Both the position numbers and the translations under genes were made by a program. A stretch of DNA of 64,000 nt from an uncultured Holophaga sp. (GTDB lineage: Bacteria; Acidobacteriota; Holophagae; Holophagales; Holophagaceae): assembly GCA_963664825.1 (NCBI GenBank), contig OY761614.1:576001-640000 (forward strand). The letters run 5' to 3'. Shown here in pieces: positions 13,646-23,710 of the stretch. The notes under the pieces were generated by a model. The model was given only the letters and a program-made list of their open reading frames with translations. It did not search any database and had not been told where the DNA came from. Each line of letters starts with the position of its first letter. The first letter of the stretch is position 1.

Positions 13646-14995
13646 CTACAATCCCAGCAGTTCCCTCAGCCGAGGCACCGCCCCCCGGCGGACCTTGAGT
13701 TCCAGATGTTCCCCGACCCGTGCCCTGGCGCGTCCCCCGAAGGCCGGTCTGAGGGCCACCACGGTCTCGGGGTGCAGCAGCACATGGCGCTGGATCCGCA
13801 GGAACAGGGTGTGCCGAAAGACCTCTTCCACCTCCCCCAGGTTTCGCCAGGAGGTGCCATAGCGCTTCTCCTGGCACCAAGCCCACACATGGTCATCCCT
13901 TTCCTCGAAATGGGTGGTCTGCTTCAGGTCCAGGGTCAGGCGCCGATCCCCGGACAGGGCGGTATAGGCATCCGGAGGGCTCGGAATCTCGGGCTCGAGA
14001 GGTTTCGGCACCCTGGGTTCCAGCGTCTCCGAAGACTGGATGGGCAGGGAAGGTGCCTTCGGTTTCCCCTTTGCCCTGGGCGATTTAGATTCCTCAAGGC
14101 GTGGCTTCGGTGAGCCCTCCAGACCCACCTCCATCCGGCAGGCGCGGAAGAGGGCCGAGAGATCCTGGGCGCCGAGTCCCTTGGCCTTGGCGGCCTTGAG
14201 CCTCTGAGAGAGGAGATCTGCCATCGGCAAGACGATGCCCATCTCCTCCAAGGCCCGGAAGACCCATTGGGTGCCCTGCATCGCCTGCTCCAGGCTCAGA
14301 TCCGCGGGCTCGAAGGCGTGGCGCACCATCAGGCCGCCATAGGTATCCATCATGGGGGACTTGAAGATCGCGGTATTGAGAAGGCGCAGGAATTCCGCAG
14401 GTGGCAGGCCCGCCTTTTCGCCCAAGGCCAGGACCTCGGCAAGCCCCTCCACCACGACCGCCGTCAGCATATCGCCTCCCAATTTCACGGCGTGGGCCAC
14501 TTCTGGAACGAGGCCCACCCGCGTCAGACCGCGCCCCAACGCGTCAAAGATTCCGAGGCAGCGGGTCACGGGAGCCTCGGCGCCCCCCACCACGATCCAG
14601 AGATGACGGGAGGCCGCCGCGCCGGGCCTGCCGAAGACCGGTGCTGCCACGTATCCCTGGCCCTTCTCACCGTGGGCTGCGGCCAGGTTCCGGGAGGTCT
14701 CCACACCGAGGGTGCTCATGCAGAGATGGATGGCCCCTGGTGGGAGATGGACGAGAAGCCCGGAGGGACCAAAGGTGAGAGCCTCTTCCGCCCCGTCGCC
14801 AGCCACCATGGTGAGGGCGACCTGGGCCTCGCCAACGGCCTCGGCCACCGTCGAGGCGATGCGCCCCACGGTGGAGCCAAGCTCGAGGGCTCGGGCTGGG
14901 GTGCGGTTGTAGAGCGTGACTTGGTGCCCGACCGCGGCAAGGTTACGCGCCATGGGAGCACCCATCCTGCCCAGCCCAAGGACCGCGATGCGCAT
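13646..14995 (-). CDS. 3-hydroxyisobutyrate-dehydrogenase-family NAD(P) oxidoreductase fused to C-terminal LytTR-like domain
   Basis: MRIAVLGLGRMGAPMARNL, YNRT, APVFG, AVKL; Pro/Lys linker; tail FLRIQRHVLLHPETV...LKVRRGAVPRLRELLGL; GGAGG SD before ATG 14995. Confidence 0.85.
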   Translation of the reverse strand: MRIAVLGLGRMGAPMARNLAAVGHQVTLYNRTPARALELGSTVGRIASTVAEAVGEAQVALTMVAGDGAEEALTFGPSGLLVHLPPGAIHLCMSTLGVETSRNLAAAHGEKGQGYVAAPVFGRPGAAASRHLWIVVGGAEAPVTRCLGIFDALGRGLTRVGLVPEVAHAVKLGGDMLTAVVVEGLAEVLALGEKAGLPPAEFLRLLNTAIFKSPMMDTYGGLMVRHAFEPADLSLEQAMQGTQWVFRALEEMGIVLPMADLLSQRLKAAKAKGLGAQDLSALFRACRMEVGLEGSPKPRLEESKSPRAKGKPKAPSLPIQSSETLEPRVPKPLEPEIPSPPDAYTALSGDRRLTLDLKQTTHFEERDDHVWAWCQEKRYGTSWRNLGEVEEVFRHTLFLRIQRHVLLHPETVVALRPAFGGRARARVGEHLELKVRRGAVPRLRELLGL

Positions 14996-15061: not shown

Positions 15062-15100
15062 AAAAAGGCTTCGGCGCCCTAGAAACAGGACGCCGAAGCC
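15062..15100 (-). terminator. Rho-independent terminator of amt1
   Basis: GGCTTCGGCG...CGCCGAAGCC stem followed by TTTTT on the minus strand. Confidence 0.85.
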
Positions 15101-15119: not shown

Positions 15120-16370
15120 TCAGAGCCCCTGGGGGTAGGCTTCCTCGCCGTGCAGTTCGGCGTCGAGGCCATGTTCTTCGGCTTCCTTGTCCACCCGGAC
15201 AGGCGTGATGCGGTCGATGATCCAGAGCATCCCGTAGGTGAAGCAAAAGGCCCAAATGGAGGAGACCGCCACGGCCACCAGCTGCTTGAAGAAGAAGCTC
15301 GTGCCTCCACCCATGAGGAGACCGTTGGTCACAATGGCGGGGTTCCATTCCTTAGCCGCGAAGAGGCCCAAGAAGATCACGCCGATGAAGCCCCCCACAC
15401 CGTGGACGCCCCAGACATCCAGCGCGTCATCCCAGCCCAGCTTGTTCTTCATGGCCACGGCGTAGAAGCAGATGCAGCCCGCCATGATGCCGATGAGGGC
15501 CGCAACCGCAGGGCTCACGTAGCCCGCACAGGGTGTAATGGTGGCCAGACCCGCCACAGCCCCCGTGAGCAGGCCCACGAGCTTGGGCTGCTTGGCATTC
15601 ATCCATTCGATCATCAGCCAGGTGGCCGCAGCGAAGGAGGCGGCGATATCGGTATTCAGGAAGGCGGAGGCGGTGATGCTATCCACGCGCAGTTCGGAAC
15701 CTGCATTGAAACCGTACCAACCGAACCAGAGAAGGCCCGTGCCCAGTGCGATGAGGGGCACGTTGTGGGGGATGTTTTCGACCACCTTGCGGCGGCCCAC
15801 GTAGAGGATGGAGGCCAGGGCCGCGAGACCGGCTGTGTTATGCACCACGATGCCGCCGGCGAAGTCCAGCACACCCCACTTGGCCAGGATGCCCTCGGGG
15901 CTCCACACCATGTGAACGAAGGGGAAGTAGACGAAGATCAGCCAGGCCGTGAGGAAGAGGAAGTAGGCCTTGAAGGTGACGCGATTGGCGAAGGCACCGG
16001 TGATGAGGGCCGGCGTGATGATGGCGAACATCATCTGGTAGGCCACATGGACGATGAGGGGAATGCCCGCGTCGTTGCCCGTGAACATCGTATGGAGGGT
16101 GATATTACGCAGGAAGGCGTAGTGGCCGGGGTGGCCCACGATGCCGTGCCAGGTGGGGCCAAAGCACATGGAATAGCCGAAGGCGAACCAGAGCACCGTG
16201 GTCCAACCCAGGCTCACGAAGCTCTGGGTCATGATCGTCAGCACGTTCTTGCGGCCCACCAGGCCGCCGTAGAAGAACGCGAGGCCAGGCGTCATCAGCA
16301 TCACGAGGCTGGCGCATATCAGCATGAAGGCGGTATTGCCGAGATTGATCGGCATGGGAGCGGGATTCAC
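15120..16370 (-). CDS. amtB: Ammonium transporter (Amt family), copy 1
   Basis: MTPGLAFFYGG, YQMMFAIIT, DFAGGIVVH, WFGWYGFNAGS, DDALDVWGVHG (twin His intact), GLD..LHGEEAY; AGGAGG before GTG. Confidence 0.97.
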   Translation of the reverse strand: MNPAPMPINLGNTAFMLICASLVMLMTPGLAFFYGGLVGRKNVLTIMTQSFVSLGWTTVLWFAFGYSMCFGPTWHGIVGHPGHYAFLRNITLHTMFTGNDAGIPLIVHVAYQMMFAIITPALITGAFANRVTFKAYFLFLTAWLIFVYFPFVHMVWSPEGILAKWGVLDFAGGIVVHNTAGLAALASILYVGRRKVVENIPHNVPLIALGTGLLWFGWYGFNAGSELRVDSITASAFLNTDIAASFAAATWLMIEWMNAKQPKLVGLLTGAVAGLATITPCAGYVSPAVAALIGIMAGCICFYAVAMKNKLGWDDALDVWGVHGVGGFIGVIFLGLFAAKEWNPAIVTNGLLMGGGTSFFFKQLVAVAVSSIWAFCFTYGMLWIIDRITPVRVDKEAEEHGLDAELHGEEAYPQGL

Positions 16371-16548
16371 AAAACCTCCTCGGGGGGGTGAAGGAAAGGG
16401 AATGGGATCGGAACGGCGGGATAGAGCTCCCGCCGCTCCCGTTCAAAACCGGAAGCAGCCGGTACATGCGGGACGGGTGAACCCCACCAGGCTTCCAGGC
16501 GCCTGCGCCAGGGCTGGAGGGTCGAAGATATTTAACCCTAGGCCTGGA

Positions 16549-16590
16549 TTTTTATGCCATCTTTACGCGTATTTTTACGTGATTTTTACA
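16549..16590. promoter_or_regulatory. T-rich direct-repeat array (KdpE-box-like) upstream of amt1
   Basis: TTTATG 16551, TTTACG 16562, TTTACG 16574, TTTACA 16585 (spacing 11/12/11); matching array at 18059. Confidence 0.7.
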
Positions 16591-16640
16591 CCGCTCCCAG
16601 TGGGGAGGGCATGCCTTGGATTGCGGTGCCTCCTCCCCCC

Positions 16641-16680
16641 AAAAAGGGAGGGACCCCAGGCCTGATGACCTGGGGTCCCC
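16641..16680 (-). terminator. Rho-independent terminator of porin gene
   Basis: GGGACCCCAGG-8nt-CCTGGGGTCCC stem, then CCCTTTTT on the minus strand. Confidence 0.8.
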
Positions 16681-16706
16681 GCTTTGTCGTGCCTTTGGGA
16701 ACGGCT

Positions 16707-17873
16707 TCAGAAGCTGGTGCCGAAGCTCCACGTGAGGCTGGTGGCGTCCCGGAAGGACTTGAACCCATCGGAAACGCCCGACAGGACGTCCTTATTCAGG
16801 CTATCGCGGCGCACTTCCAGGCGGCTGAAGGTGGCGGCCCATTTTCGTTCCAGGCCGAGGGCCACGGACGTGGCCTTGAGGTTGGCGTTCAGGAGCCCTG
16901 CGAAGGCCGTCCCAGCGGCATTGACCAGGCTCCCATTGATGCTGGGATCGGCCAAGAGGCGGACACCCTTGTCATCCTTCAGATACTCGCCCCGGGCGAA
17001 GAGGGCCCAGCGCTCATCGAGCTGAAGCTTGTAGATGGCACCGAGGCCTGACCAAGCAGCCTTCACATCACCCTGCCCCGCAGCGCCACGGATGGCCTCG
17101 GCAGCGAAGGACTCCTGACCGTATTCCAATTCCCACTGGAGCGTCGACGCTCCCCAAACCCACTGACCCAGAATGCAGGCTCGTTCCCGAGGACGTCCCT
17201 CGGCACCCGTATTGACGCTAGCCTGCTCGACGCCGCGGTAGACCATCAAGGACGCGAATTTGTCCGCAGCTCCTGCATGGTTGTAGGTCAGACCCAGTCC
17301 CAGGGTCTTGCCCTTGTTGTTGTCCCGCACCCGGTCCTCACCGTTGAAAGCCCAGACGTCCGTGCTCCAGGAGGACGTGAAGGCGTGGTGCCAGTTGATC
17401 CCCACCTGGGCAAAGGGATCGGCGTAGGTATAGAGGAGCCCTCGGCTGGCGGTCACATCCTGGGTGTGGTCCACGACCTCCATGCCAAGACTGGTCCACA
17501 TGCGCCCGAGCTTCACCGTGTCATGGCCCCCTGTCCAGATGAGCATGGCCTCCGGATAGGCGATGGAACCCGTCTCCTGGGCGTTGGTGGCGTTCAGGAC
17601 CTTCGCGCTCTGTCCCCCTAGCACCGTGAACTTGGCCGACCAGCCCTGGGCGAGGGTGACGTCGGCGCCGAACTGGAGGCCATCCAGGGCGATCTGGCCC
17701 TCTCCCGCGTCCACACCCCGCAGGAAGAGGCCGTCATCGGTGGTCTGGCGGTCGGAGGCGGCCCCGGAGGCCCACACGGCCCCTCTCCACTTGATGGATG
17801 GGCCCGGTACCGTTTGGGCTACGAGCAGCGCCCCCGTCGAGGCGAGAAGGGTGAGTAGGAGCGGATATCGCAT
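16707..17873 (-). CDS. Outer-membrane beta-barrel porin (BBP2/PF07642-like)
   Basis: Signal peptide; GRMWTSLGMEV, SRGLLYTY..PF, NGED...DNN.GK, ARGEYLKD, RLEVRRD; terminal Phe. Confidence 0.78.
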   Translation of the reverse strand: MRYPLLLTLLASTGALLVAQTVPGPSIKWRGAVWASGAASDRQTTDDGLFLRGVDAGEGQIALDGLQFGADVTLAQGWSAKFTVLGGQSAKVLNATNAQETGSIAYPEAMLIWTGGHDTVKLGRMWTSLGMEVVDHTQDVTASRGLLYTYADPFAQVGINWHHAFTSSWSTDVWAFNGEDRVRDNNKGKTLGLGLTYNHAGAADKFASLMVYRGVEQASVNTGAEGRPRERACILGQWVWGASTLQWELEYGQESFAAEAIRGAAGQGDVKAAWSGLGAIYKLQLDERWALFARGEYLKDDKGVRLLADPSINGSLVNAAGTAFAGLLNANLKATSVALGLERKWAATFSRLEVRRDSLNKDVLSGVSDGFKSFRDATSLTWSFGTSF

Positions 17874-18058
17874 GGTTTCCTCGAAGGGCAAGGGGTGAAA
17901 GGCGGATCATCGACGGGCCCAGGGGGCTCCCCGAACAGAAGGGCAGACCTCCATCTAGGGGGCGGCGACCCACAGACAGTCTGTTGGCGCATTCTGCCAC
18001 CTTTTGAGCCCCACCGAATCATCGAAGGCCTACCCCTGCGAAGGGCGACATGGTTCTG

Positions 18059-18100
18059 TTTTTATGGAATTTTTGCACGAGCATTTACCTGATTTTTACG
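18059..18100. promoter_or_regulatory. Second T-rich direct-repeat array (KdpE-box-like) between porin and amt2
   Basis: TTTATG 18061, TTTGCA 18072, TTTACC 18084, TTTACG 18095 (spacing 11/12/11); 31/41 nt identical to the 16549 array, ungapped. Confidence 0.7.
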
Positions 18101-18353
18101 CACATATCCAATTAGCCTTTGGAAGGCCACTCCATGCCTTTGGGGTGTCACCGCTAGAGTTGCTCCCCATGGCCGCAGCCTTTCAATTTTTTTCAATATG
18201 GGGCCTGGCCTAGTGCTGCGATTCGTTCATGCCAATAGTTAAATGTATTGTCCATATTGCGACGTCACTCACACGGAACTCGAAAAGCCTTTTACCAAAA
18301 GGCACCACGAAACCCCTTCACAACCACGGACCTTCATTCCAGAGGAGAACGAA

Positions 18354-19577
18354 ATGACCCCCGCTTTAGACACAGGCAATGTAGCCTTCATGCTAGTTGC
18401 CGCCAGCTTGGTGATGCTCATGACACCCGGGTTGGCCTTTTTCTACGGTGGACTGGTCGGCCGCAAGAATGTGCTGGCGATCATGATCCAGAGCTTCGTA
18501 TCCATGGGCTGGACCACCTTCCTCTGGTGGGCCTGCGGGTATTCCCTCGTCTTCAGCGGCGGGGAGGGCGCCATCATCGGCAACCTCAAACTCGCCTTCA
18601 TGCATGGCGCCATGCCGACGGATATCCATGTCGCCAGCGGGATGCCCCTCTTCGTGGTCTTCGTCTACCAGATGATGTTCGCCATCATCACCCCCGCCCT
18701 GATCACGGGCGCCTTCGCCAACCGGATCAAGTTCTCGGCCTACCTGATATTCCTCACCCTGTGGATGCTCTTCGTCTACTTCCCCATCGCCCACATGGTC
18801 TGGGGCGGAGGCCTCTTCGCGAAGTGGGGCGTGCTGGACTTCGCCGGCGGCACGGCCGTCCATGCCACGGCCGGGTTCGCCGCTCTGGCTTCCGTGATCT
18901 ACGTCGGCAAGCGGAAATTCGCCGACAAGGGTCCCCACAGCATTCCCCTGGCGGCCCTCGGCACGGCCCTGCTCTGGTTTGGCTGGTACGGCTTCAATGC
19001 CGGCAGCGAGATGAAGGTCGATCACGTCACCATCACCGCGTTCATCAACACCGATATCTGCGCCTCCATTGCCGCCATCACCTGGCTGGCCATCGCCTGG
19101 AAGTTCGAGAAGAAGCCCAAGTTCGTGGGCCTTCTCACGGGCGCCGTGGCGGGCCTGGTGGCCATCACCCCCGCTGCGGGCTATGTCAGCATCAATGGGG
19201 CCGTGGTCATCGGCGTAATCGTCAGCGTCATCTGCTACCTGGCCGTAGAGCTCAAGAACAAGATGGGCCTCGATGACGCCTTGGATGTCTGGGGTGTCCA
19301 CGGCGTCGGTGGCGTGGTGGGCTGCATCTGCACGGGCATCTTCGCCACCAAGCTCTGGAACCCCGCCGGGGCCGATGGCCTCCTCCGCGGTGGCACCCAT
19401 TTCTTCTGGATGCAGGTCCTCAGCGTGGCCATCACCGCCGCTTACGCCTTCGTGTTCAGCTACGTGGCCCTCTGGCTCATCAATAAGGTGACCCCCGTAA
19501 AGGTGACCCCCGAGGAAGAAGAAGAAGGGCTCGATACCGCCATGCACGGCGAAGAGGCCTACATCTCCATCGACTAA
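18354..19577 (+). CDS. amtB: Ammonium transporter (Amt family), copy 2
   Basis: Same Amt motifs (DFAGGTAVH, DDALDVWGVHG, GLDTAMHGEEAY); AGAGGAG SD before ATG 18354. Confidence 0.97.
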   Translation: MTPALDTGNVAFMLVAASLVMLMTPGLAFFYGGLVGRKNVLAIMIQSFVSMGWTTFLWWACGYSLVFSGGEGAIIGNLKLAFMHGAMPTDIHVASGMPLFVVFVYQMMFAIITPALITGAFANRIKFSAYLIFLTLWMLFVYFPIAHMVWGGGLFAKWGVLDFAGGTAVHATAGFAALASVIYVGKRKFADKGPHSIPLAALGTALLWFGWYGFNAGSEMKVDHVTITAFINTDICASIAAITWLAIAWKFEKKPKFVGLLTGAVAGLVAITPAAGYVSINGAVVIGVIVSVICYLAVELKNKMGLDDALDVWGVHGVGGVVGCICTGIFATKLWNPAGADGLLRGGTHFFWMQVLSVAITAAYAFVFSYVALWLINKVTPVKVTPEEEEEGLDTAMHGEEAYISID

Positions 19578-19596
19578 AAGACCCGTTCAGACAGAG

Positions 19597-19632
19597 AGGA
19601 GGGGCGGCGCCCGAGGCGCAGCCCCTCCTTCT
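19597..19632 (+). terminator. Hairpin between amt2 and kdpD (weak U-tract)
   Basis: AGGAGGGGC...GCCCCTCCT stem followed by TCT. Confidence 0.5.
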
Positions 19633-19718
19633 GCCTAGGGCTCCCTTTCATACACGCGGCCTTCGAGGCCTCCGCCCATGAGATCATCTGAGAAGCAGTC
19701 CTCAGGAGCGAAACCCGG

Positions 19719-21686
19719 ATGAACAACGCGTTCCCGAACGATACCTCGCCCATCCTGGTGGCCCTGGGCTCCGAGGCGCGCACCCTGCGCCTCGTGCATG
19801 TGGGCTTCCGGATGGCCCGGGAACAGGGCCGCCCCTGGGTGGCCGTCCACGTGGAGGTGATGGGCTGGGAGACGGCCGAAGAGGCTGACCAGGCCAGGGT
19901 CTGGCTGCAGGAGGCCCATGAACTCGGGGCCGAAGTGACCTGGGTGAAGGCCTCGAGTGTCGTCAATGGGTTGGTGGTGGAAGTCCGCAGGCGCTTGGCC
20001 TCCACCCTCATCATGGGCAAGAGCGCTCCCCAGGGCCTCTGGGGGCGCCTGGAACACTCCAAGGCCCAGGGCATCCTGCGCCGCACGCCGGATCTCCGCA
20101 TCCTGGCCCTGGCCCTCGACGCTTCCACCCCCAAGGGCGAGGCCTTTCAAAGCCTCGAAGACACCATCGGCATCTACCTGGCCATGGCCGTGCTCCTGGT
20201 AGTCTGCACCATTGGAGCCGCGGCCTTCTCTGCGGCCATCGGATTCCCGGCAATCCCAGCCGTCTTCTCCATGGGCGTAGCCTTCGTGGCCTATCGATGG
20301 GGCCGCCGGATCTCCATTCCCGCCACCCTGCTGAGCGCCCTGTTCTACGACTATTTCCTCGAAAACCGCTTCAGTTTCTTCATTGAAGACTGGCTCAAAT
20401 TCTTCTACTTCCTGGGCACCCTCGTCACCGTGCAGGTGCTGGTGGACCTGGTGCGCCGACTGCATCTCGAGACCCGTGCCGGTCGGCGGCGGGAGGCCGA
20501 AACCGTCCTCCTGATGCTCCTGGGCCGAGCCCTGGCCCGGTGTTCCACGATCCAGGAGGTCTCGGAGGTCCTCTCCCGCCGCTTGCAGAGCCTCTTCCAG
20601 TGCAAGGCCAGCCTGCTGATCCCCGGGGAGGGAGACACCTGGATCCGCATGCCGGAATGCACCAACATCCCGGACTGCCCGCCCCCCAGTGAACTCCTGC
20701 CCGAATTCAGCCACGCCTCCACCCGGGAGGATCCCCTGGAACCCCTGTTCCGGGAGGGGTGTTCCTTCGTCTCCCTGGCCAGCACCGGGGGCACGGAAGG
20801 GCTGCTTCGGATGCGGCTGGCGAACGACGCGAAATTCCCCCAGGAGTCCTGGGGTTCCCTCCAGGCCTTCGCCATCCAGGGCACCCTGGCCCTGGAGCGG
20901 GTGCGCTGGGTGGAGGCCGCCCAGAGCGCCCACCTGGAAAGCGAGACGGAGCGCATGCGCAGTTCCCTGCTCAGCTCCATCTCCCATGATCTGCGCACGC
21001 CCCTGGCCGGGATCCAAGGGGCGGCCAGCAGCCTCCTCCTCCCGGCCACCCTGCCCGAATCCACCCGGCGCGACATGCTCTCCATGATCCACGACGAAAG
21101 CGAGCGCCTGGCCCAGCTCATCGGCAATCTCCTGGATATCACGCGCCTGGAGAGCGGAGCCATCCAGCTTCGCAAGGAATGGCAGCCGTTGGGCGAAGTG
21201 GTGGGAGCGGCCCTGCGGCGGGCCGAATCCGGCAGCGGCCTCCAGAATGTCCGGCTGGATCTCCCCGAAGATCTCCCCCTGGTCCCCCTGGACGCGGTGT
21301 TGGCCGAGCAGCTCCTGATCAACCTCCTGGTGAACGCCCGGCGCCATGCCCCCGAGAGCCCCGTGGAACTGAGGGCTTGGCCCGAATCAGAGAGCCTCGA
21401 ACTGGAGATCGCCGATCGAGGCCCCGGCATTCCCCAGGCCTACCGTGAACGCATTTTCGATAAATTCTTCCGACTCCCGGCCTCGACGGCCGGGGATGGC
21501 GGAGTGGGCCTGGGCTTGGCCATCTGCCATGCCATCGCCAAGGCCCACGGAGGGAGGATCTGGGTCGAGGATCGAAGCGGCGGGGGGGCCTCCTTCCGGG
21601 TCTCCCTCCCCCTCACAGGCACGCCCCCCCCGCCCCCGGATTCCGAGCCCCCCCCCGAAGAGGAGTGTCCATGGCCCTGCCCCTGA
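19719..21686 (+). CDS. kdpD: KdpD-like sensor histidine kinase lacking the N-terminal KdpD domain (USP-TM-GAF-HisKA-HATPase)
   Basis: USP-like start ILVALG...WVAVHVE; DUF4118-like TM bundle; ETERMRSSLLSSISHDLRTPL; DRGPGI; GVGLGLAIC. Confidence 0.85.
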   Translation: MNNAFPNDTSPILVALGSEARTLRLVHVGFRMAREQGRPWVAVHVEVMGWETAEEADQARVWLQEAHELGAEVTWVKASSVVNGLVVEVRRRLASTLIMGKSAPQGLWGRLEHSKAQGILRRTPDLRILALALDASTPKGEAFQSLEDTIGIYLAMAVLLVVCTIGAAAFSAAIGFPAIPAVFSMGVAFVAYRWGRRISIPATLLSALFYDYFLENRFSFFIEDWLKFFYFLGTLVTVQVLVDLVRRLHLETRAGRRREAETVLLMLLGRALARCSTIQEVSEVLSRRLQSLFQCKASLLIPGEGDTWIRMPECTNIPDCPPPSELLPEFSHASTREDPLEPLFREGCSFVSLASTGGTEGLLRMRLANDAKFPQESWGSLQAFAIQGTLALERVRWVEAAQSAHLESETERMRSSLLSSISHDLRTPLAGIQGAASSLLLPATLPESTRRDMLSMIHDESERLAQLIGNLLDITRLESGAIQLRKEWQPLGEVVGAALRRAESGSGLQNVRLDLPEDLPLVPLDAVLAEQLLINLLVNARRHAPESPVELRAWPESESLELEIADRGPGIPQAYRERIFDKFFRLPASTAGDGGVGLGLAICHAIAKAHGGRIWVEDRSGGGASFRVSLPLTGTPPPPPDSEPPPEEECPWPCP

Positions 21687-22357
21687 TACTACTCATCGAG
21701 GACGAGGCCACCCTCCGCCGCTTCCTGGCCCCCACCCTGCTCAACCAGGGCTACCAGGTCATCCAGGCCACCACCGGAGCCGAGGGGCTCACCATGGCCC
21801 GCAGCTACAACCCGGACTTGGTGCTTCTGGACCTGGGGCTCCCGGATCAGGATGGCCTCAAGGTGCTCGAAGGCATCCGCTCCTGGAGTCGGCGTCCCAT
21901 CCTCATCCTCTCGGCACGCAATCAGGAGCGCGTGAAAGTCCACGCCCTGGACCTGGGCGCCGACGACTACCTCACGAAACCCTTCGGGGCCCCAGAGCTC
22001 CTGGCGCGGATCCGGGTGGCCCTGCGCCACTCCGTGCAGGACCTCAACCCGGAATTGGTCTTCGATCAGGGAGGCCTGCGGGTGGACTTCGAGCGGCGGG
22101 AGGTGAGTCTGGAGGGGCGCTCCATCCATCTCACGGCCCTGGAATACCGTCTGTTGGAAGCCCTCGTCCAGCGCGTCGGCAAGGTGGCCACCCACGCCCA
22201 GCTGCTGGCCGATGTGTGGGGTCCCAGCGGTGAAGGCCAGAACCACTACCTCCGCATCTACATGGCCCAGCTGCGCAAGAAGCTCGAGGCCGACCCCAAC
22301 CGCCCGAGGTTCTTCCTCACGGAACCCGGGGTGGGCTACCGACTGAATGCAGAGTGA
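21671..22357 (+). CDS. kdpE: KdpE-like OmpR-family response regulator
   Basis: LLDLGLPD, GADDYLTKPFG, HYLRIYMAQLRKKLEADP.RPR..LTEPGVGYR; overlaps kdpD end. Confidence 0.92.
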   Translation: MALPLILLIEDEATLRRFLAPTLLNQGYQVIQATTGAEGLTMARSYNPDLVLLDLGLPDQDGLKVLEGIRSWSRRPILILSARNQERVKVHALDLGADDYLTKPFGAPELLARIRVALRHSVQDLNPELVFDQGGLRVDFERREVSLEGRSIHLTALEYRLLEALVQRVGKVATHAQLLADVWGPSGEGQNHYLRIYMAQLRKKLEADPNRPRFFLTEPGVGYRLNAE

Positions 22358-22488: not shown

Positions 22489-22989
22489 TCACCCGAGGAG
22501 ATTCAGGGTGCTGGAGGTCTGGGTAGCCTGAGCCGAGGCAATGGCCGAACTCGCGGAACTATCCGTACTGCTGGAAGTCGTGCTCAGCTGATAGCCGTAG
22601 GCGACCAGGGCCGTGGCGATATTGGAGTTGATCGCCGCACTGGAGAAGCCGAGAAGCCCCTTGGAGGACGATCCCAGGCTTTGGAGGAGGCTGGAGGCCG
22701 AGGAGGAATCCAGCCCTCCGACCGATACAGAGGAGAGATCCAGGCTCGTGGCGGTGGAGCCCTCCGTCACGGAGGCCGAATAGACGCCACTCACCAGGGC
22801 GCTCAGGCTTCCGCTGCTCCCGGCTGCGGTGGAAAGGGCATCGGCTTTGGGCAGGAGATCGCTCACCGAGGAGCCACTCCCACTGTAGGCGGTAGTCAGC
22901 GCCTGCAAGACAGCGCTGGATTGCCCGCTGCTCTTGAGGGTGGTCTGGTAGTTGTAGAGGTTCAGTGCGCTCGCCACTGAGACATCCAT
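22489..22989 (-). CDS. Ser/Ala/Thr-rich low-complexity hypothetical protein
   Basis: GAGGTG SD before ATG; coherent codon bias; ends STLNLLG. Confidence 0.7.
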   Translation of the reverse strand: MDVSVASALNLYNYQTTLKSSGQSSAVLQALTTAYSGSGSSVSDLLPKADALSTAAGSSGSLSALVSGVYSASVTEGSTATSLDLSSVSVGGLDSSSASSLLQSLGSSSKGLLGFSSAAINSNIATALVAYGYQLSTTSSSTDSSASSAIASAQATQTSSTLNLLG

Positions 22990-23125: not shown

Positions 23126-23710
23126 CTATCGAAGGGAGGATTCCGGCGTGCCCAGGACGACGATCCGGGCCAGGCCTTCGAAGAGCGGCAGGCTGGCCTT
23201 GCGGCTGTACGTGATGCCCGCGGGCAGGTTCACCGTCACCGTGCCGATGTTCTGATCGGTCACCAGCACCTCACCGTTGGTGCCCTCCCCCAGGCAGAAC
23301 ACGGCGCCCTGGGCCAAGGACTTGGGTGTCGTCCCAACCGCAGGGATGCCGCGCTGGGCGAGACTGTGGATGGCCACCGTGGCACCTATGGAACCATCGC
23401 CAGCCATCCGGTCCTTGGGCAGCAGCACCAGGAAGTGGGCCTGATGACTGGCCAGCATCTGAGCGCCCCGCTGGGCTTGGTCGGTGCTACGGATATCGGC
23501 GATCGTGAGGGTGGCCTCGGGCCCCGCGGCCCGGGCCAGATCTTCCACCTGCGCCCGGCTGAACCGGTAATCGCAGATCACGCCGAGATGGGTCTTCTCC
23601 GGCCAGATCGTCTTGGTCACCTGCATCAGGGAGGAGAAGTCTTCGGCCTGGAGGCCCAGGCCCCCGAGGAGCAGCGCTACTGCGCCAAGGGTCTTGGAGA
23701 GGGTGAACAT
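23126..23710 (-). CDS. Secreted hypothetical protein
   Basis: Signal peptide ending LQA; AGGAGA SD; alpha/beta alternation. Confidence 0.75.
   Translation of the reverse strand: MFTLSKTLGAVALLLGGLGLQAEDFSSLMQVTKTIWPEKTHLGVICDYRFSRAQVEDLARAAGPEATLTIADIRSTDQAQRGAQMLASHQAHFLVLLPKDRMAGDGSIGATVAIHSLAQRGIPAVGTTPKSLAQGAVFCLGEGTNGEVLVTDQNIGTVTVNLPAGITYSRKASLPLFEGLARIVVLGTPESSLR

Follow-up and report, generated by a model that had tools for sequence, protein, structure and literature searches.

KdpDE is the textbook K+ sensor of bacteria, and expression of Amt ammonium transporters is a textbook case of nitrogen control. Amt-based sensing is represented by Ks-Amt5, an ammonium-sensing histidine kinase, and amtB-glnK operons under NtrC may have a porin gene upstream or downstream, as in Herbaspirillum nlmA-glnK-amtB. 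In Escherichia coli KdpD and KdpE (PDB 6LGQ, 4KNY) act on kdpFABC; the KdpE half-site is TTTA(T/C)A, with R193 and R200 contacting DNA (PMC3264566), KdpD has an external site for outside K+ and senses inside K+ with the cytoplasmic C-terminal part (PMC5936718), and the N-terminal serine kinase of KdpD phosphorylates S162 of KdpB (PMC11018627). In split KdpD systems the serine and histidine kinases reside on separate chains, the latter consisting of transmembrane (TM), GAF and DHp-CA parts and serving kdpFABC (PMC11018627; papers given by PMC number are cited for excerpts of their text). The present analysis concerns a window of 64,000 nucleotides from an uncultured Holophaga sp. (contig OY761614.1, positions 576,001 to 640,000), in which a KdpDE-type pair, termed KdpD2/KdpE2 to tell it from the canonical full-length KdpD1/KdpE1, stands beside two amt genes and a porin gene. 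Comparative sequence evidence indicates that KdpE2 very probably controls amt1, and probably also the porin gene and amt2.

Organization of the module

The five genes named in a preliminary description of this DNA, amt1, the porin gene, amt2, a shortened kdpD and kdpE, were all recovered where it had placed them, and neither kdpFABC nor a P-II gene occurs in the window. The module comprises the following features.

15067..15100, minus strand: intrinsic-terminator-like hairpin 3' of amt1, 15-pair stem and T run
15120..16355, minus strand: amt1, ammonium transporter (PF00909, E 1e-110; TIGR00836 above cut-off)
16548..16591, plus strand: operator array 1, four TTTAY half-sites, spacing 11-12-11
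16649..16680, minus strand: terminator-like hairpin 3' of the porin gene
16707..17873, minus strand: putative outer-membrane beta-barrel porin of the BBP2 family (PF07642, E 1e-29)
18058..18100, plus strand: operator array 2, four half-sites, spacing 11-12-11, between the divergent porin gene and amt2
18354..19577, plus strand: amt2, second Amt (PF00909, E 7e-117)
19719..21686, plus strand: kdpD2, histidine kinase of 655 aa (DUF4118, HisKA and HATPase)
21671..22357, plus strand: kdpE2, OmpR-family response regulator (best family KdpE, 247 bits; cut-off 325)

Amt1 and Amt2 are both full-length, share 62% identity and belong to the same Amt clade. The position of the porin gene between two amt genes is particular to the source genome, and a two-amt layout is also found in some genomes of genera g6 and g9; the window layout is a local rearrangement of the common form. 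The hairpin at the end of the porin gene is predicted to split the porin and amt1 transcripts. A sigma-70 consensus scan of the module detected no promoter.

The operator and its target gene

The half-sites, of the form TTT(A/G)Y, lie at 16551, 16562, 16574 and 16585 in array 1 and at 18061, 18072, 18084 and 18095 in array 2. The strict form TTTAY-N6-TTTAY occurs three times in the 3.47-Mb source genome, always inside the two arrays, with 0.4 occurrences expected under independent half-sites; since other spacer lengths give 0-5 matches, the genome-wide count alone is weak and the placement of the sites constitutes the evidence. With a weight matrix for which relatives alone served as training set, the window sites come out as the top three of the genome (30.3, 28.1 and 22.4; next 20.4). 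The KdpE-like arrays first noticed upstream of amt1 and the porin gene are confirmed, and L049 has an array like array 1 at the same distance.

KdpE2, a receiver domain followed by a winged helix, has KdpE as its best PDB match (E 2e-65) and falls under the NCBIfam equivalog cut-off. Its recognition helix, HYLRIYM, is that of E. coli KdpE, R193 and R200 are retained, and the half-site agrees with the E. coli TTTA(T/C)A; YLRIY is found in 59/59 scored KdpE2 proteins. Phosphorylated KdpE2 would very probably bind the 11-bp TTTAY repeats. The recognition helices of KdpE1 and KdpE2 differ by Val versus Ile at position 194. An Ile/Val194 code was rejected as sufficient to separate TTTA from TTGA operators; it holds for 59 KdpE2 and 12 KdpE1 proteins but is broken by the Burkholderiales locus L164.

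Array 1 lies 3.1 kb from kdpD2 with no other promoter nearby, so that by its placement it can serve only amt1, while array 2 could serve the porin gene, amt2 or both. Among the 49 loci with a single nearby operator site, 43 display on the amt strand a YAnnnT -10 hexamer at a distance of exactly 39 nt to the operator, the hexamers themselves varying by genus; the corresponding distance at E. coli kdpF, counted by eye, is 42 nt. The operator lies at about -52 to -68 relative to the likely amt1 start, a position which makes activation of amt1 (and of the porin gene) the likely effect of KdpE2. Although inserts shift kdpD2 by 300-800 nt in L092, L100, L054 and L056, the operator stays 93-173 nt from amt1; its distance to the amt -10 box is fixed whereas its distance to kdpD2 varies. 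The operator is missing in 9/9 amt1 orthologs (81-88% identity; best matrix score 9.1), hand-picked in two genera, from genomes without a KdpD2 match, and most of the KdpD2-free genomes compared still have KdpA and KdpD1. The 58 linked loci score at least 24.2, but these loci are the training set. This co-segregation and the fixed -10 distance are what would be expected of KdpE2 operators serving amt1.

No TTTAY pair occurs in any of 20 stretches upstream of kdpA, about half of which (800 nt fetched) probably missed the promoter, and a CTT(G/A)AY pair is present in 8/20. A strict TTGAY pair, tried as a universal KdpE1 site, was rejected as it occurs in only 3/20. Among the top 40 matrix matches none represents a KdpE2 site at glutamine synthetase or dehydrogenase genes.

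Conservation across Holophagaceae

The synteny is not unique to the source genome. KdpD2 is present in 63/133 family genomes and 7/16 genera at E < 1e-20 (g5 39, g9 12, g1 6, g2 2, g6 2, g8 1 and g14 1). From the 64 loci retrieved, 4 with less than 400 nt upstream were set aside, and in all 60 scorable loci an amt gene lies within 4 kb upstream of kdpD2; the strict operator accompanies it in 59, the exception being L057. In the usual order the genes for 2-oxoacid dehydrogenase E1, a porin where present, and Amt1 run away from the operator on one side, and kdpD2-kdpE2 on the other. A BBP2 ortholog follows amt1 in 27/60 loci. In 4 further loci the slot is taken by an unrelated porin (a Gcw_chp porin in 2, a distant BBP2 protein in 2), and in 2 loci by a chemoreceptor. 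This protein, a methyl-accepting chemotaxis protein directly behind amt1 in L082 and L087, may be a chemoreceptor related to ammonium or to cations.

A profile search of 1.84 billion representatives resolved KdpD2 as three clusters at 797-1039 bits, followed by a gap to 525 bits, below which short KdpD-like proteins are frequent (dozens of clusters of 500-700 aa); a related-locus search seeded with KdpD2 returned no match. In trees built from hand-picked subsets (19/57 KdpD2; 50 Amts) by a quick IQ-TREE search with SH-aLRT only, or by FastTree for KdpE, KdpD2 and KdpE2 each form a clade of their own, separate from KdpD1 and KdpE1. The 120 KdpD2 homologs mostly measure 620-700 aa, named homologs assign the source organism to Holophagaceae, cultured strains of Geothrix and Mesoterricola encode module proteins, and a broken or mis-started kdpD2 was ruled out by constant length and start across about 60 genomes. 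A sister clade of KdpD2 (L042, L043, L044) has lost the Usp domain too, leaving a TM-GAF-histidine kinase form; its members in L042 and L043 adjoin RND-type efflux genes, and L043 also has a P-II-like gene. This clade is a further re-use of KdpDE.

Several other Kdp arrangements were seen in the course of the survey. The kdpD1 position beside thiC is without kdpFABC in L046 (4300-8750) and L048, being accompanied in L046 by a multiheme cytochrome cluster with the pump located elsewhere. Extra kdpA-kdpB clusters with only a short KdpC-like piece occur in g9 (L255, L256, L257 and L258), their KdpA showing altered filter segments, TNT(N/D)(L/V/I)QH, and loss of the GE motif. Of the canonical kdp operons sampled, about half (L259, L263, L264, L267 and L269-L275) have a small hydrophobic open reading frame (ORF) ahead of kdpF.

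Canonical Kdp and nitrogen genes of the source genome

In the source genome (G000; one contig of 3.47 Mb, 96.6% complete) kdpFABC, kdpD and kdpE form a complete operon, which occupies G000:C1:562-570 kb, about 6 kb left of the window edge and at a distance of 21 kb from amt1. The idea that the Amts stand in place of KdpFABC thus holds at the locus and fails at the level of the genome, and with a KdpA match in 54/63 module genomes the module comes in addition to the pump. KdpD1 of this genome has 922 aa and carries PF02702, the N-terminal KdpD serine-kinase domain with its Walker A/B motifs. Its kdpF promoter displays CTTGAC/CTTGAT repeats with an 11-bp period and no TTTAY pair, and this different operator marks the window pair as a second, separate system. 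No match to TrkH or Kup was found in the genome; Kdp is the sole K+ importer among the three families searched (Kdp, Trk and Kup).

The search for P-II, suggested along with that for kdpFABC, gave no match anywhere in the contig. GltB and GlnD had no credible match there, nothing exceeded the family cut-off for NtrC, and two glutamine synthetases and two Glu/Leu/Phe/Val dehydrogenases are present. Throughout genus g1 (G000-G008) P-II and GltB are found in 0/8 genomes each, and the sole Amt is of the clade described here; a similar pattern of GltB and P-II loss was noted for g7, g14 and g16. Genus g5 keeps separate amt-glnK units, and most g5 module genomes also have GltB.

The KdpD2 sensor

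KdpD2 displays the order Usp-like domain, four TM helices, GAF, DHp and CA, with the phospho-accepting H423 and the N-box intact and the H-box HDLRT found in 57/57 aligned proteins. Its AlphaFold model (mean pLDDT 85) places a Usp-like alpha/beta domain at residues 11-132, ahead of the four membrane helices of the DUF4118 domain, the GAF domain and the kinase core; PF00582 (Usp) matches the window protein at E 0.0017, below cut-off, and two orthologs above it. The best NCBIfam family is KdpD, covered over profile positions 252-886 and below cut-off, and a fold search with the whole model returned only generic histidine kinases. PF02702 gave no match in the window KdpD2 and is absent in 57/57 aligned KdpD2. 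The only PF02702 of the source genome belongs to the full-length KdpD1, which rules out a separate serine-kinase chain as partner of KdpD2. Loss of the KdpB-phosphorylating domain accords with a system that has ceased to act on the pump.

Within KdpD2 the DHp (0.75-0.77) and CA (0.64-0.71) domains are conserved at the level of KdpD1, and the Usp domain is the best-kept input part (0.52-0.58). The membrane region is the least conserved, with an identity of 0.35-0.46 among KdpD2 against 0.52-0.72 among KdpD1, and DUF4118 scores 41 bits in KdpD2 versus 102 bits in KdpD1. In E. coli numbering, D427, M430, D460, D474 and H477 are near-invariant in 21 KdpD1 and lost or variable in 57 KdpD2. The motif D/N427, M430, D460, P466, T469 and D474 is retained in 20-21 of the 21 KdpD1, whereas KdpD2 has Leu, Ala, Gly or Met at position 427, mostly Pro at 430 and variable residues at 460 and 474, P466 being kept in 45/57. 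The loop residues 466-472 (P466/T469/L470/V472) presumably form the external K+ site of KdpD. W194 and W225 are invariant in KdpD2 (57/57), whose genera have no acidic or polar residue of the membrane region in common. In the simplest reading the external K+ site would have been lost and cytoplasmic sensing kept; alternatively, a new cation-pi site may have arisen.

The Amt clade and the porin

Amt1 and Amt2 keep the AmtB-equivalent residues F107, W148, D160, H168, F215, S219 and H318 as well as the C-terminal ExxGxD, and both twin-His residues are present in all clade members inspected. Wild-type AmtB carries no K+ current, twin-His changes (acidic or Ala) being needed for K+ flux (PMC9040831). 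With the twin-His pore and all ammonium-site residues intact, these Amts should carry ammonium, and K+, which had been offered as a possible substrate, was rejected.

The clade is well supported in the tree and is marked by NR (GAF[AST]NR) where the second cytoplasmic loop otherwise carries the conserved ER motif, named in PMC4852598. It extends to Paraburkholderia, Aquitalea, Acidobacteriaceae, Eremiobacterota and others, and includes the urease-island Amts of two enterobacterial plasmids (Hafnia and Providencia); neighbours outside the family were annotated from rough ORF calls, with 131/227 candidates scanned. P-II was found in 2/151 loci screened, duplicates and a few loci without amt included, neither of which holds a clade member, while 8 canonical amt loci serving as control had P-II. 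The Amts accordingly appear GlnK-independent. The porin matches the PF07642 profile and ends in a C-terminal Phe, its channel role being predicted.

Links between Amt and Kdp outside the module

The Amt clade is found in 90/151 genomes of an Eremiobacterota order. Of these, 78 have a listed kdpA (six kdpA matches being outside the list), and in 50 of the 78 the clade amt lies within 10 kb of it, on the opposite strand in 49; in 13 genomes another kdpA, pointing the same way, is found no more than 2.5 kb away. In this layout kdpCBAF runs away from a gene for an outer-membrane barrel protein followed by amt, with one shared repeat array in the divergent region. An array of the GGATNATCC type is present in 22/22 intergenic stretches inspected, chosen from the 30 best loci, and mostly lies visibly between two -10-like boxes. 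Its repeats are about 12 bp apart and offer a candidate site for another regulator. In L219-L253 (e.g. L249:7400-14600) a second, stand-alone kdpA often follows amt, and then a Na+/H+ exchanger gene.

Within Holophagaceae a third short paralog pair, KdpD3/KdpE3 (L107/L145, L055), precedes amt in two loci; KdpD3 arose within the KdpD1 group, and its membrane motif is of the canonical form. In L164 a short, proteobacterial-type kdpD-kdpE pair diverges from amt, and a TTTAC pair lies 60-80 nt ahead of the amt gene. As L164 combines a Val helix with a TTTAC site, cross-reading of operators is possible.

Proposed mechanism and alternatives

We propose that KdpD2/KdpE2 is a duplicated, dedicated KdpDE-type system whose only output would be a GlnK-independent ammonium route of Amt and porin. 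KdpD2 has kept the kinase core and lost the KdpB-phosphorylating domain; KdpE2~P would very probably bind the TTTAY repeats and would probably activate amt1 (and the porin gene); the Amts would move ammonium, with the porin as the likely outer-membrane entry. The trigger is the weak step. It may be the internal monovalent-cation state, most simply falling cytoplasmic K+ read by the cytoplasmic domains, a choice made because the canonical membrane motif has decayed in KdpD2. In cells unable to restore K+, ammonium would then take over as substitute cation or pH buffer, in a second line of response after KdpFABC. There are bacteria in which K+ is reported to be replaceable by ammonium (PMC1609136), and the canonical Kdp systems of M. 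smegmatis and E. coli are induced by high NH4+ (PMC5401905), so that a response of KdpD proteins to ammonium, be it direct or indirect, already exists. Between the signals that had been offered, ammonium on one side and K+ limitation or acid on the other, the comparative evidence leans toward cation status, since the Amt clade has recurrent ties to Kdp and none to glnK, shows no regulon in common with the assimilation genes, and in g5 occurs redundantly alongside amt-glnK. Internal K+ or cation status is therefore put forward tentatively, at somewhat under an even chance. The module does not appear to be an Ntr output, given the lack of P-II beside the clade and of P-II, GltB, GlnD and above-cut-off NtrC in the source genome.

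A number of observations weigh against this proposal. Only in g9 is the operator oriented toward amt1 as in E. coli, most genera having it the other way round, and the window has no -10 box at the conserved 39 nt, its candidates lying 33 and 43 nt from the distal pair. Since 39 of the 63 genomes belong to one genus, the counts overstate independence. The Eremiobacterota GGATNATCC array is not of KdpE type and could regulate its two directions oppositely, and L164 is the only one of the 201 searched genomes of its family with such an arrangement. Basic amino acids may account for the rescue of K+-limited cells by ammonium (PMC5573677), and yeast suffers from ammonium toxicity when K+ is low (PMC1609136). 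The loss of membrane residues and the two invariant Trp would fit a new ligand as well as decay. A K+ signal would need only a KdpE1 site at amt1, so that duplication, an own operator and a changed sensor suggest another signal or threshold, and a nutritional role is plausible in g1, where P-II and GltB are lacking and the clade Amt is the only one.

The last of these points belong equally to a possible but rather doubtful alternative, in which KdpD2 was retuned from K+ to ammonium and low NH4+ would induce high-affinity uptake for nitrogen nutrition, replacing Ntr/P-II control; NH4+ would be sensed by a remodelled site in the membrane, within the cytoplasm or by way of the Amt. A regulon of only amt and porin follows the KdpDE logic by which a scarce ion calls up its transporter, the membrane region is the most diverged part of KdpD2, W194 and W225 could form a cation-pi site, and glutamate dehydrogenase would require high internal ammonium. 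Moreover, the Gcw_chp porin that fills the slot in 2 loci also lies behind a canonical amtB-glnK in L192. However, the KdpD2 genera share no acidic or polar residue in the membrane region, GltB and canonical amt-glnK units are also present in most g5 module genomes, the canonical motif is retained in two other KdpD paralogs with a link to the Amt clade, and Eremiobacterota connect the clade directly with kdpFABC. It is rather doubtful, although possible, that KdpD2 is a KdpD-derived NH4+ sensor running two-membrane uptake without P-II, GlnD and NtrC, as one of several independent recruitments of the Amt clade to Kdp control in three phyla.

Amt-mediated transport of the E. coli AmtB type is electrogenic and favours uptake, which speaks against an improbable third explanation, ammonia release or acid defence. 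Here the input to KdpD2 would be acid, ionic strength or a ligand held by the Usp domain, while Amt and porin would export ammonium arising from amino-acid catabolism or mis-import by Kdp. The closest plasmid-borne Amt relatives (62-66% identity), nested inside the clade, lie in urease islands, although urease-linked Amts may equally recapture ammonia. Other members neighbour genes of ammonia-releasing enzymes or of cation/H+ handling (amidase, cyanase, aromatic amino acid lyase, AllG, Na+/H+ exchanger, MgtE and a P-type ATPase), but clade neighbourhoods outside the family are mostly unrelated housekeeping genes. The adjoining 2-oxoacid dehydrogenase E1 gene in most loci and the well-conserved Usp-like domain would suit export, whereas the direction of Amt flux is not readable from sequence. 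Very improbable, finally, is mere neighbourhood, in which the repeat autoregulates kdpD2-kdpE2 or is read by KdpE1 and amt is no target. The site lies mostly between amt1 and kdpD2 with its TTTAY strand as the kdpD2 sense strand, and the near-identical KdpE1 and KdpE2 helices, together with L164, would allow such reading. Array 1, in contrast, is remote from kdpD2, the site follows amt1 in the four displaced loci, only the amt -10 distance is fixed, the site is gone where KdpD2 is gone though KdpA and KdpD1 mostly remain, and the canonical kdpF stretches, as far as they reach the promoter, lack the pair.

Genes flanking the module

On the left, at 13646-14995 (minus strand), a 3-hydroxyisobutyrate-dehydrogenase-like enzyme is fused to a C-terminal LytTR DNA-binding domain, as also in L035. 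On the right of kdpE2, two ORFs at 22489-22989 and 23126-23710 (both minus strand) are without a Pfam match, one being very Ser-rich and the other having a signal-peptide-like start.

Comparison with known systems

The component families are known, and no earlier description of a KdpDE paralog wired to amt was found in a literature search at the level of titles and abstract openings, mainly open-access; the domain supplement of PMC11018627 may include this KdpD form. A conserved KdpDE paralog dedicated to Amt would join K+ sensing and nitrogen-type transport. If K+ is read, the module may provide the genetic programme behind the old chemostat observation of ammonium standing in for K+, to which the literature searched attaches no genes. 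If NH4+ is read, it would be a new kind of ammonium sensor, and KdpD1 and KdpD2 in one genome would be a natural experiment on the discrimination of near-isosteric ions and on the ion-binding place of KdpD.

Fungal Mep2, like Ks-Amt5, couples an ammonium transport protein to signalling, as the module does; there the Amt is the sensor, whereas here a KdpD-derived kinase is the predicted sensor and the Amt the output. The Hafnia and Providencia urease-island Amts are of the same clade and GlnK-free, but show no KdpDE paralog among their annotated neighbours and stand in a context of urea hydrolysis. With amtB-glnK operons under NtrC that have porin genes the module shares a twin-His Amt and an outer-membrane barrel; it differs in the absence of glnK, a genome without P-II, the ER to NR change of the Amt clade, and a KdpE-type rather than sigma54/NtrC promoter. 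Split KdpD kinases likewise lack the N-terminal domain (PMC11018627), whereas KdpD2 keeps Usp, sits with amt and shares its genome with a full-length KdpD. The closest likeness is to E. coli KdpDE, in the Usp-4TM-GAF-DHp-CA kinase, the HYLRIYM helix with R193/R200, the TTTA(T/C) direct repeat at activator distance and the overlapping kdpD-kdpE genes. In contrast, KdpD2 is without the serine-kinase domain and its membrane motif has decayed, the predicted target is amt and porin instead of kdpFABC, and the pair coexists with KdpD1/KdpE1 using a CTT(G/A)AY operator. Judged by sequence, the module thus resembles KdpDE but departs from it in two defining features, the N-terminal domain and the kdpFABC target.

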